Source: Methanomassiliicoccus sp. UBA345
GTDB lineage: Archaea > Thermoplasmatota > Thermoplasmata > Methanomassiliicoccales > Methanomassiliicoccaceae
Direction: 5' to 3'
Length of the DNA stretch: 32,000 nt
NCBI GenBank assembly: GCA_002504525.1
Contig: DATD01000009.1
Coordinates: 43,464 to 75,463 of the forward strand
Part shown: one piece after another, positions 18,729 to 20,014 of the stretch
Position numbering within the stretch: position 1 is the first letter of the stretch
How the letters are laid out: each line of letters starts with the position of its first letter
Program-made: the position numbers and the translations under genes
Notes under the pieces: generated by a model
What the model was told of the DNA's origin: nothing
What the model saw: the letters and a program-made list of their open reading frames with translations, nothing else
Database searches by the model: none

Positions 18729-19043
18729 TCAACGACAGCACTCCGGCCCGCAGGTCACTTCCTTGGAGCCGGTGAGGGCGGCCTTGATCATGGCGCTGGC
18801 GCATCCCACCCCGGCGTCGACGGAGATCGCCCCGGCGGGGCAGTTGCGCTGGCAGGCGCCACATTCCATGCATCTCTCGGGAGCGACCATACGGGCCTTC
18901 CTTTCTCCGGGGACGAACACCCCATGGGGGCATACGCTCCAGCACATGCCGCACCGAATGCACTTTCCCGGAAGGAACCTCAGGGTGTTGATCGCGCTCT
19001 CGTTCACATTCTCCATCGTCATCATCGGTAGGTCCATGGTCAT
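18729..19043 (-). CDS. hgcB: HgcB, 2x[4Fe-4S] ferredoxin of the mercury methylation pair
   Basis: ORF 18729..19259 trimmed to ATG 19043 (MTMDLPMMTMENV..., 104 aa). It has CIRCGMCWSVCP and CMECGACQRNCP (two CX2CX2CX3CP motifs), an extra Cys81 and a C-terminal vicinal Cys102-Cys103 (GPECCR). The start shares 1 nt with the hgcA stop (TGATG at 19041..19045). GGGGTGG lies 5 nt upstream. Confidence 0.88.
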   Translation of the reverse strand: MTMDLPMMTMENVNESAINTLRFLPGKCIRCGMCWSVCPHGVFVPGERKARMVAPERCMECGACQRNCPAGAISVDAGVGCASAMIKAALTGSKEVTCGPECCR

Positions 19044-20014
19044 CAGAACCACCCCAGAATCGAGCCGAGTATCGTTACTATGATGGATGCCAGTCCGATC
19101 ACGGCCATCGCCACCAGTGCCGGGATGTAGCGGAAGATCTCTTCTCTCACTCCAGTTCTGGAGGCATAGGTCGAACAGCCGGTGAAATTGAGGGCCAGAT
19201 ACCCGACCACCGGAACCATAAGGAGGACCGTTCCGGCGGCGTAAGCGAGACCGGTCCATCCTGGAACGGAGAGCAGATAGTAAAGCGCGAACGGCGCCGC
19301 CACGACGGCGCCGAGCACCACGCCCTTGGATGTGAAGTCCTTCGTGGGCAGCCAGGGCAGCATGAGGGGGAACAGCGCCGCGCCGGCCAGTACTGCAGTG
19401 AGAACGATGAGCGCTGGAACTATGCCGCCCAGGAAGAGCATTAATGCGAACGCCGCCACGGCCCCGAGCGAGATGTTCCTCAGTTCGACTGGGACCAGCA
19501 CCGCACGATCACGGAAGGGGAAGGTCACCCTCCGCATCTCCTCCGTTGCGCCGGCGTCGAGGTATGCGGGAATATCGTCAGCCCGGACCGGGCCGTACTC
19601 CACTGAGAAGCCGGTTCTGGCTTTGACCTCGTGGGCCGCCACACCCGGCCCCCCCAGCTGCGGCAGGATGAGGCGACGATGGTCGACATGGTCCTTCAGC
19701 GACGTCGCCTCGATGCGTTCGACCAGCTCATCGGTCCCGAAGGTGCCCTTTCCGGCAGCGCACCACACGTTGATGCCCTTGGTGTCGAGGACCAGGATGT
19801 GGGCGTCGATGCCGTGAAGGGCGGAGCGTAATGCGTCGAAGCTGAGCGTGTAGTTCGCGCTGACGAACACCGGCGAAGAACGATCCGGACGGCCGAGGCG
19901 ATACAGTCCGGGCGTGACGCGATGTTCCATCCTGCGATATCCGAGGCGGGCCAGGACGTGGTCCCGCCGGTCCCGAGAGGAAAGCACCGATGTCGTCGTC
20001 ATTGTCTCGCTCAT
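19043..20014 (-). CDS. hgcA: HgcA, corrinoid protein of the mercury methylation pair
   Basis: ORF 19043..20086 trimmed to ATG 20014, with AGGTGA 4 nt upstream and 4 nt after the upstream gene's stop. The diagnostic cap-helix motif GINVWCAAGKGTF spans 19748..19771 for NVWCAAGK, with the Cys85 codon at 19760..19762. The C-terminal half has 4-5 hydrophobic segments by eye. Confidence 0.9.
   Translation of the reverse strand: MSETMTTTSVLSSRDRRDHVLARLGYRRMEHRVTPGLYRLGRPDRSSPVFVSANYTLSFDALRSALHGIDAHILVLDTKGINVWCAAGKGTFGTDELVERIEATSLKDHVDHRRLILPQLGGPGVAAHEVKARTGFSVEYGPVRADDIPAYLDAGATEEMRRVTFPFRDRAVLVPVELRNISLGAVAAFALMLFLGGIVPALIVLTAVLAGAALFPLMLPWLPTKDFTSKGVVLGAVVAAPFALYYLLSVPGWTGLAYAAGTVLLMVPVVGYLALNFTGCSTYASRTGVREEIFRYIPALVAMAVIGLASIIVTILGSILGWF

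Follow-up and report, generated by a model that had tools for sequence, protein, structure and literature searches.

The 32,000-nucleotide (32-kb) stretch of Methanomassiliicoccus sp. UBA345 analyzed here (assembly GCA_002504525.1, contig DATD01000009.1, positions 43,464 to 75,463; hereinafter the window) encodes the mercury methylation proteins HgcA and HgcB together with a small AbrB-type protein, HgcC, in the gene order hgcC-hgcA-hgcB. The interpretation that we favor, with a probability of about 0.9, is that these genes comprise a three-gene operon of an uncultured Methanomassiliicoccaceae methanogen that is responsible for canonical mercury methylation, with HgcC most probably playing an autoregulatory role. 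The original prediction, which was made from the nucleotide sequence alone, included the hgcA-hgcB pair; the present analysis adds the gene immediately upstream and a candidate operator in its promoter. The locus was tabulated in seven parts, with all features on the minus strand. The genes and the relevant parts of their products, including the open reading frame (ORF) lengths in amino acids (aa), are:

19043..20014, minus strand: hgcA, corrinoid mercury methylation protein, 323 aa (NF040863, Pfam CdhD, AlphaFold2 (AF2) model, Foldseek)
19748..19771, minus strand: cap-helix motif NVWCAAGK of HgcA, residues 82-89 (sequence and homologue conservation)
19055..19516, minus strand: transmembrane domain of HgcA, five predicted helices, residues 167-320 (AF2 secondary structure, Kyte-Doolittle)
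18729..19043, minus strand: hgcB, ferredoxin with two [4Fe-4S] clusters, 104 aa (NF040864, residue conservation)
18927..18962, minus strand: first cluster motif of HgcB, CIRCGMCWSVCP, residues 28-39 (CX2CX2CX3CP)
18837..18872, minus strand: second cluster motif of HgcB, CMECGACQRNCP, residues 58-69 (CX2CX2CX3CP)
18801..18803, minus strand: Cys81 of HgcB
18735..18752, minus strand: CGPECC tail of HgcB (CxxxCC; Cys98, Cys102-Cys103), from homologue conservation
20019..20285, minus strand: hgcC, small AbrB/SpoVT-type protein, 88 aa (NF040962, TIGR01439, Pfam, AF2)
20106..20111, minus strand: invariant Cys59-Cys60 of HgcC (homologue conservation)
20256..20261, minus strand: N-terminal Cys9-Cys10 of HgcC

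The genes were identified with the curated equivalog models of NCBIfam, the cut-offs of which are 275 bits for HgcA (NF040863), 99 bits for HgcB (NF040864) and 70 bits for HgcC (NF040962). The 323-aa protein scores 419.2 bits on NF040863 (HgcA_corrinoid), 144 bits above the cut-off; Pfam yields only generic domains for the pair (CdhD and ferredoxin), with CdhD (PF03599) covering residues 31-151 of HgcA at 52 bits. The protein carries KGINVWCAAGKGTF, in which Cys85 is encoded by the TGC codon at 19760..19762, exactly where the original prediction had placed it. The related loci provided 81 HgcA and 79 HgcB sequences for an assessment of conservation, and 42 database homologues of HgcA, which also served as the input for AF2, formed a second set. 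NVWCA(A/S)G is present in all 81 loci, and N82, V83, W84, C85, A86, A87 and K89 show no variation among the 42 database homologues. The AF2 model of HgcA, with a predicted local distance difference test score (pLDDT) of 87.4, begins with an alpha/beta domain, after which come five long helices (residues 167-196, 198-221, 227-249, 252-280 and 286-320), and the hydrophobic segments in the Kyte-Doolittle plot fall within residues 178-323, in agreement with the 4-5 hydrophobic segments originally noticed in the C-terminal half. The top fold match of this model in Foldseek is 9a0b_A, a published computational/integrative model of HgcAB from strain ND132 (42% identity, E 1e-17), and the next matches are corrinoid domains of the corrinoid iron-sulfur protein (CFeSP); the sequence search of the PDB retrieved no experimentally solved HgcA, the matches being CFeSP corrinoid domains only (2h9a, 4c1n, 4djd; E ~1e-10). 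The start of hgcA at 20014 agrees with the profile (residue 6 corresponds to model position 3) and with the homologues, and is preceded by the Shine-Dalgarno-like sequence GAGAGGTGA. A longer in-frame hgcA ORF extending up to 20086 was rejected because the start at 20014 fits both the profile and the homologues, has GAGAGGTGA and avoids overlap with the upstream gene.

The 104-aa product contains both CX2CX2CX3CP motifs, the isolated Cys81 and the vicinal Cys102-Cys103 that had been read from the sequence, and Cys98, which had gone unmentioned, is conserved as well. The eight cluster cysteines and Cys81 are present in all 79 homologues; Cys98 is retained in 78, Cys102 in 74 and Cys103 in 72 of these. 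Many methanogen HgcB proteins have far longer tails with several CC or CxC repeats. The tail is therefore better described as a Cys-rich module that varies in length than as one CC pair. The predicted identities of both proteins therefore hold, and the features read from the sequence are not due to chance: each protein passes its equivalog profile, the search having been suggested in the original prediction (419.2 bits vs 275 for HgcA, 109 bits vs 99 for HgcB), and the key residues vary little or not at all across 79-81 loci.

The genes are tightly packed. The hgcC stop codon is located 4 nt ahead of the hgcA ATG on the same strand, and the A in the stop codon of hgcA is also the first nucleotide of the hgcB ORF, so that the previously reported TGATG overlap of 1 nt is indeed found in the sequence (TCTGATGAC); hgcA and hgcB are two separate ORFs, without fusion, and hgcB adjoins hgcA in 79 of 80 related loci. 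This close spacing (4 nt between hgcC and hgcA, 1 nt of overlap between hgcA and hgcB) and the Shine-Dalgarno-like sequences ahead of hgcA and hgcB suggest that the three genes form a single transcription unit in which translation of HgcC would be closely coupled to that of hgcA.

HgcC scores 115.5 bits on NF040962 ("HgcAB-associated protein HgcC"), 46.3 bits on TIGR01439 (AbrB) and 32.6 bits on Pfam MazE_antitoxin, and the fold of its AF2 monomer model matches SpoVT, AbrB, MazE and the archaeal Sso7c4. Its DNA-binding loop reads RGQMVLPKDIR, and RGQxVLPKxxR is invariant among the homologues. Equally constant is the vicinal pair Cys59-Cys60, present in 39 of 39 locus-derived sequences and 120 of 120 database homologues, always exactly 25 residues downstream of the RGQxVLPK loop; in addition, the N-terminal tail contains CC or CxC in 103 of the 120 homologues. 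Gene neighbors were counted in 80 distant hgcAB loci (52 archaeal and 28 bacterial, the taxa being taken from the record names). In 38 of these, the gene that immediately precedes hgcA on the same strand is hgcC, namely in 36 of the 52 archaeal and 2 of the 28 bacterial loci, both of the latter from Actinomycetota. An AbrB/PrlF/MazE-like gene upstream of hgcA, chiefly in archaeal methylators, has been described previously and proposed to encode a regulator, whereas hgcAB in bacteria has an ArsR-like one (Zhang et al., 2023, PMC10349881). Literature searches with "hgcC" returned unrelated acronyms only and those with "HgcAB-associated" returned nothing; neither the invariant Cys pair of HgcC nor the promoter repeat described below was found in the literature searched. 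Thus, the view that the genes flanking hgcAB here are not those usually discussed does not apply to the upstream gene, which is a conserved partner that had been missed, but stands for the other flanking genes.

Upstream of hgcC, a tandem repeat was identified by pattern search and comparison of loci:

20323..20345, minus strand: candidate operator with cores spaced by 9 nt, GCAGA-N4-TCAGA-N4-TCAGA
20332..20336 and 20323..20327, minus strand: the two perfect TCWGA cores of the candidate operator
20311..20319, minus strand: TATA-like box GTATTACTA of the putative hgcC promoter

Read from 20345 to 20323, the candidate operator is GCAGA-acaa-TCAGA-aaaa-TCAGA, that is, a pseudo-palindromic TCWGA core repeated at a spacing of exactly 9 nt. 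The box GTATTACTA begins 3 nt past the proximal core and is centered ~30 nt before the hgcC ATG, a position that implies a leaderless or near-leaderless hgcC mRNA, with transcription predicted to start ~3-4 nt ahead of the ATG. Most loci have a comparable AT-rich box whose first nucleotide lies 1-5 nt beyond the proximal core. Among the 42 loci with hgcC, 35 have paired cores in the 200 nt ahead of that gene; among the 39 usable loci without hgcC, none has such a pair in the 300 nt ahead of hgcA. The loci with paired cores come from Methanomassiliicoccales, Methanomicrobiales, Methanosarcinales, Methanocellales, Methanoperedens and one actinobacterium. Across 838 kb of loci, ~45 of the 48 pattern matches are sites upstream of hgcC; in the window, the pattern matches once, with 0.08 matches expected. 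By a simpler count, 34 loci contain at least two TCAGAA/TTCTGA hexamers, compared to 0.26 expected when the upstream regions are shuffled. The consensus anchored on the proximal core is ..GAttatTCTGAtTttTCtGAaaa.TataAatat; GA of the third register, although not imposed by the search pattern, occurs in 34/35 and 31/35 sites, and 11 of the 35 loci have three full cores. Given that the intergenic sequence flanking the repeat is otherwise unalignable between orders, its conservation is attributed to selection and not to residual homology.

The hgcCAB cluster does not resemble a recent acquisition. Its GC content (0.60-0.65) is within the range of the flanks (0.58-0.70), it is syntenic next to proAB in four species, and the ratio of nonsynonymous to synonymous substitution rates (dN/dS) for hgcC, hgcA and hgcB is 0.19-0.25 in comparison with locus L087 and with Methanomassiliicoccus luminyensis B10, with dS near saturation. 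Horizontal transfer, or a recent island, was considered and rejected for this clade on the grounds of the GC content and the synteny. Given the synteny, the native GC content and the purifying selection, the cluster is, by all these sequence comparisons, a stably inherited, selected chromosomal locus within the clade, where the original description of hgcAB as an accessory, patchily distributed function fails. Two sister species, with HgcA sequences 77% and 70% identical to that of the window, share its arrangement, in the order proA-proB ... flavodoxin, small membrane protein, tandem Lrp regulator (divergent), hgcC-hgcA-hgcB, small membrane protein, with different far flanks. The exact HgcA sequence is already present in NCBI, JGI, ENA and Logan assemblies, including three UBA metagenome-assembled genomes (MAGs; GCA_002505225.1, GCA_002495585.1 and GCA_002508585.1), and in the index it occurs in 75 blocks of the collection, with unchanged gene order throughout. 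The closest named relatives are Methanomassiliicoccaceae, and in a scan of species-representative genomes with HgcA the best identity among the matches listed is 62%. The hgcAB pair is a typical representative of a well-known system, and its lineage was already recognized as a carrier.

HgcA binds a cobamide with the cap-helix cysteine as the lower axial ligand and, in the methyl-Co(III) form, passes the methyl group on to Hg(II). Low-potential electrons from HgcB regenerate Co(I), and the isolated and C-terminal cysteines of HgcB handle Hg(II). By orthology with this established family, the window would encode a membrane-anchored HgcA, the N-terminal corrinoid domain of which would hold a cobamide with Cys85 as the lower axial ligand; methyl-Co(III) HgcA would transfer the methyl group to Hg(II) to yield methylmercury, HgcB would return cobalt to Co(I), and Cys81 and the CxxxCC tail of HgcB would handle Hg(II). 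All residues and domains that this mechanism needs are present and under selection. For HgcC, conservation and co-occurrence suggest an autoregulated, perhaps thiol-sensing, hgcCAB operon: an oligomer of HgcC would bind the 9-nt TCWGA repeats along a single face of the DNA. Because the proximal core abuts the position of the TFB-recognition element (BRE) and the TATA box, or overlaps it, access of TFB and TBP would be hindered, so that autorepression appears to be the simplest mode of action, although activation from that position is also conceivable. Vicinal cysteine pairs bind Hg(II) and As(III) in other systems, and the invariant Cys59-Cys60 of HgcC is a likely sensor of a thiophilic ligand or a redox signal. 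More tentatively, HgcC might be a thiol-switch transcription factor of the AbrB superfamily that sits as a dimer of dimers on the TCWGA repeats over the BRE/TATA region and uses Cys59-Cys60, aided by the Cys-rich tail, to detect Hg(II), As(III) or some other thiophilic or redox signal.

Several observations weigh against this interpretation. The HgcB score exceeds the NF040864 (HgcB_ferredoxin) cut-off by a small margin (109 vs 99 bits). In the cofactor-free AF2 model of HgcA, the cap-helix residues 82-88 (19751..19771) have pLDDT below 50, the sole low-confidence stretch, and the residues around Cys85 are not predicted to be helical; folding that depends on the cofactor might account for this low confidence, as might the partial unwinding that has been proposed for Cys-on coordination. 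The HgcC monomer model is itself of moderate confidence (pLDDT 74.5). The N-terminal cysteines of HgcC vary among the homologues, and Cys59-Cys60 lies within a predicted beta-strand, where the two side chains may face opposite sides, so that the pair could form one metal site only at the interface of an oligomer. The repeat could be bound by a factor other than HgcC. An exact 17-mer scan of metagenome contigs gave at least 120 matches in unrelated, mostly AT-rich loci, with none near hgcC among the matches listed, and neither supports nor tests specificity. Finally, the source organism is known from MAGs and metagenomes only.

Two alternatives concern the hgcAB pair itself. That it is a paralogue, either a CFeSP/CdhE-type subunit of the acetyl-CoA pathway or the non-methylating fused HgcAB-like type, has a very low probability in our estimate and appears already largely refuted by the model scores. 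Homology of the N-terminal domain of HgcA to CdhD/CFeSP is real (52 bits on PF03599; E 2e-10 to PDB 2h9a), and the 211.6 bits of HgcA on the fusion model NF043039 amount to a substantial partial score, but this score and the 53.2 bits of HgcB compare to a cut-off of 285 bits, and on the CdhE/CFeSP gamma model NF003195 the score is 70.3 bits vs the cut-off of 306, with only model positions 323-445 of 450 aligned and the Fe-S and TIM-barrel domains absent. The Cys cap helix and the five-helix transmembrane domain are in place, hgcA and hgcB are separate ORFs, and the closest cultured relative, M. luminyensis B10, turned more than 10% of added Hg into methylmercury, whereas organisms carrying the fused hgcAB-like gene do not methylate (PMC5893877). 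The original prediction had named assignment to CFeSP or to the fused paralogues, or a lack of transmembrane helices, as grounds for abandoning it; both paralogue models fail here, and transmembrane helices are predicted by AF2 and Kyte-Doolittle alike. A less remote alternative, which we regard as possible but less probable than not, is that hgcAB is orthodox and that mercury methylation is a side reaction, the native role being another corrinoid methyl transfer or a metal(loid) transaction, with HgcC answering the native substrate. We know of no alternative substrate of HgcAB, which counts against this possibility, as does the lack of mer, ars or other metal-resistance genes among the annotated genes of the window; furthermore, it is compatible with the enzymatic capability for mercury methylation. 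Its attraction is that at least four species have retained the cluster vertically at one site by the proline biosynthesis genes, that its GC content is native and that it is under purifying selection, as would suit a housekeeping-type benefit where the habitat is not known to be rich in Hg. The literature also leaves the native function open and ties the control of bacterial hgcAB to an ArsR-like, arsenic-responsive regulator (PMC10349881).

The role of HgcC can also be read differently. The Pfam match to MazE_antitoxin (32.6 bits), the label "antitoxin PrlF" given to its relatives in JGI and the discussion of this gene as a toxin-antitoxin component (PMC10349881) would be explained if HgcC were a stray MazE/PrlF-type antitoxin, a remnant of a toxin-antitoxin module, and the TCWGA repeats a promoter element of some other factor. 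We consider this improbable: no toxin gene (MazF, YhaV or similar) adjoins hgcC in the window, where its neighbors are hgcA and a divergent Lrp-type regulator, and the same holds for related loci, including the 38 distant ones, so that the antitoxin label does not fit HgcC. Moreover, HgcC passes the dedicated equivalog model, and the repeat is found only where hgcC is present, in several orders and two phyla, as expected of a regulator and operator that are inherited together. A thiol-based chaperone of Hg(II) or metal(loids), or an accessory subunit passing substrate to HgcB/HgcA, is similarly doubtful. The invariant vicinal Cys pair, the Cys-rich N-terminal tails that recall the HgcB tail and the tight translational coupling of hgcC to hgcA would all be in keeping with such a function, but the DNA-binding loop residues of the AbrB fold are invariant and a specific DNA repeat co-occurs with hgcC; in addition, hgcC is missing from about half of the hgcAB loci and from almost every bacterial one, and therefore does not encode a core catalytic component. 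A dual regulator/chaperone role for HgcC is possible.

Beyond hgcCAB, three features of the immediate surroundings are relevant:

18263..18685, minus strand: 140-aa DUF420-like membrane protein with four transmembrane segments, after hgcB (Pfam match of a homologue)
18711..18718, minus strand: TATA-like box ATTTAAAC of the 140-aa membrane protein gene, ~30 nt before its ATG
20392..21300, plus strand: tandem AsnC/Lrp-type regulator with two helix-turn-helix domains, 302 aa, divergent from hgcC

The 140-aa protein is clade-restricted, with 53% identity to its counterpart in L087. The positional homologue from an M. luminyensis-like metagenome strain passes the Pfam DUF420 model (33.1 vs 30.5 bits), whereas the protein of the window fails. 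In the sister species represented by loci L088 and L089, the gene is split over two reading frames; in M. luminyensis B10 (locus L090, compared with L091) it has undergone a ~341-bp internal deletion around 7700..8130; and its dN/dS is 0.42. The protein was rejected as a fourth component of the system given the split in the sister species, the deletion in the methylating B10, this dN/dS value and its own TATA-like box. The presence of a DUF420-type protein in a strict anaerobe is surprising. The tandem Lrp regulator, 65-68% identical in the two sister species and not found at this position in M. luminyensis, shares a 106-bp intergenic region with the hgcC operator; an inverted repeat, TGCAT-N3-ATGCA, is located in the same region at ~20343..20355. 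Along with ThiL, the AmmeMemoRadiSam radical SAM enzyme, the flavodoxin and the 140-aa membrane protein, the tandem Lrp regulator was dismissed as a part of the system, with 0 matches in the 80 distant hgcAB loci; all these neighbors are conserved only in the genus-level clade. The membrane protein aside, these neighbors and proBA are regarded as housekeeping genes without a functional tie to hgcCAB.

The rest of the window consists of ordinary archaeal housekeeping genes, namely a lysine/diaminopimelate cluster, PanE, an endonuclease V-methyltransferase fusion, a nitroreductase, MscS, an HhH-GPD glycosylase, the AmmeMemoRadiSam radical SAM enzyme, ThiL, ProBA, transaldolase, a split transketolase, PCNA and a beta-CASP nuclease; scans of the 32 kb for tRNA genes and Rfam families produced no match. 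The lysine/diaminopimelate cluster (2826..9519, minus strand) encodes an aminotransferase, an Orn/diaminopimelate decarboxylase, an ACT-domain aspartokinase, DapB and DapA, and is headed by a 143-aa Lrp/AsnC regulator (9088..9519). The 317-aa ORF at 10564..11517 (minus strand) combines the DNA-binding domain of O6-methylguanine-DNA methyltransferase (residues 16-89) with endonuclease V (residues 124-305) and is apparently a fused DNA-repair protein. The radical SAM enzyme (16169..17209, minus strand; TIGR04337, 362 bits) is encoded between ThiL and the HhH-GPD glycosylase, with no AMMECR1 or Memo partner seen adjacent to it. Transaldolase and transketolase occupy 24901..27334 (minus strand), the transketolase being encoded by two genes (N-terminal part, 26489..27334; C-terminal part, 25545..26492); the transaldolase ORF has an N-terminal extension of ~120 aa ahead of the Pfam domain, and its start codon may be wrong. 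Four ORFs of 124-342 aa (684..1409 and 1416..1790, minus strand; 14540..15388 and 28673..29701, plus strand) have no Pfam match at E<=1e-5; the one at 14540..15388 has no NCBIfam match either, and the one at 28673..29701 overlaps an antisense ORF (28682..29581), so that either strand may be coding.

With respect to the broader implications, a widespread uncultured Methanomassiliicoccus-like species is a probable methylmercury producer. The occurrence of hgcAB itself adds little, given that hgcAB and methylation are already known in Methanomassiliicoccales and the exact sequence is public. What is added is the recognition of hgcC, hitherto discussed only as a putative "antitoxin-like" regulator, together with the Cys-Cys pair and the promoter repeat, which provide two testable handles on the regulation and the native role of archaeal hgcAB. 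Should HgcC prove to be a thiol switch, mercury methylation in most methanogens that carry hgcAB would be a regulated response, and its defined operator could be used to trace other members of the regulon, which in turn would point to what HgcAB natively does.

Among known systems, the closest is that of the cultured type strain M. luminyensis B10 (GCA_000308215.1, CAJE01000015.1), which has the same gene order, hgcC-hgcA-hgcB, and proteins 64% (HgcA), 64% (HgcB) and 67% (HgcC) identical to those of the window. In B10, the three genes directly follow proA-proB, matching the proA-proB-adjacent site in the window, and are preceded by the matching operator repeat, AAATCAGAAAAATCAGAA then TTTTATATATA. 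The divergent block of the tandem Lrp regulator, the small membrane protein and the flavodoxin between proB and hgcC is found in the window but not in B10, and on the far flank ThiL and the radical SAM enzyme of the window contrast with an amino-acid permease and methyltransferase genes in B10.

HgcAB of Pseudodesulfovibrio mercurii (Desulfovibrio desulfuricans) ND132, with which the family was founded, shares with the window proteins the domain architecture, the cap-helix cysteine, the two [4Fe-4S] motifs, the isolated cysteine and the C-terminal Cys pair. The comparison with ND132 proposed in the original prediction gave 42% identity between HgcA and the 9a0b_A model over 325 columns, and Cys81, Cys102 and Cys103 of HgcB are at a constant offset of +8 from Cys73, Cys94 and Cys95 of ND132, which we take to be the numbering of the mutagenesis literature. 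The systems differ in the upstream regulator gene, which is the AbrB-type hgcC in the window and an ArsR-like gene in bacteria; in the bacterial system, this regulator is co-transcribed and controls hgcAB, as PMC10349881 relates from Gionfriddo 2023. The large subunit of CFeSP (AcsC/CdhE; 2h9a, 2ycl, 4djd, 4c1n) has a Rossmann-like corrinoid domain homologous to residues ~31-152 of the window HgcA (root-mean-square deviation 3.3-3.4 A over ~125 columns), with an N-terminal [4Fe-4S] domain and a TIM barrel but no transmembrane domain, the reverse of HgcA; its cap helix lacks the cysteine, with DGTSVLTAWAAGKF aligned where HgcA has KGINVWCAAGKGTF.

For HgcC, the N-terminal fold and the Arg/Lys DNA-contact loop are common to AbrB (1yfb), SpoVT (2w1t), MazE and Sso7c4 (2l66), whereas the invariant vicinal Cys pair in the last strand, the Cys-rich N-terminal tail and a conserved C-terminal helix bearing an LGPL motif set HgcC apart; it has neither a toxin partner nor a GAF domain of the SpoVT type. 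Proteins of the AbrB/SpoVT/MazE type typically bind DNA as dimers or tetramers, and by analogy such binding by HgcC would fit the tandem sites spaced by 9 nt.

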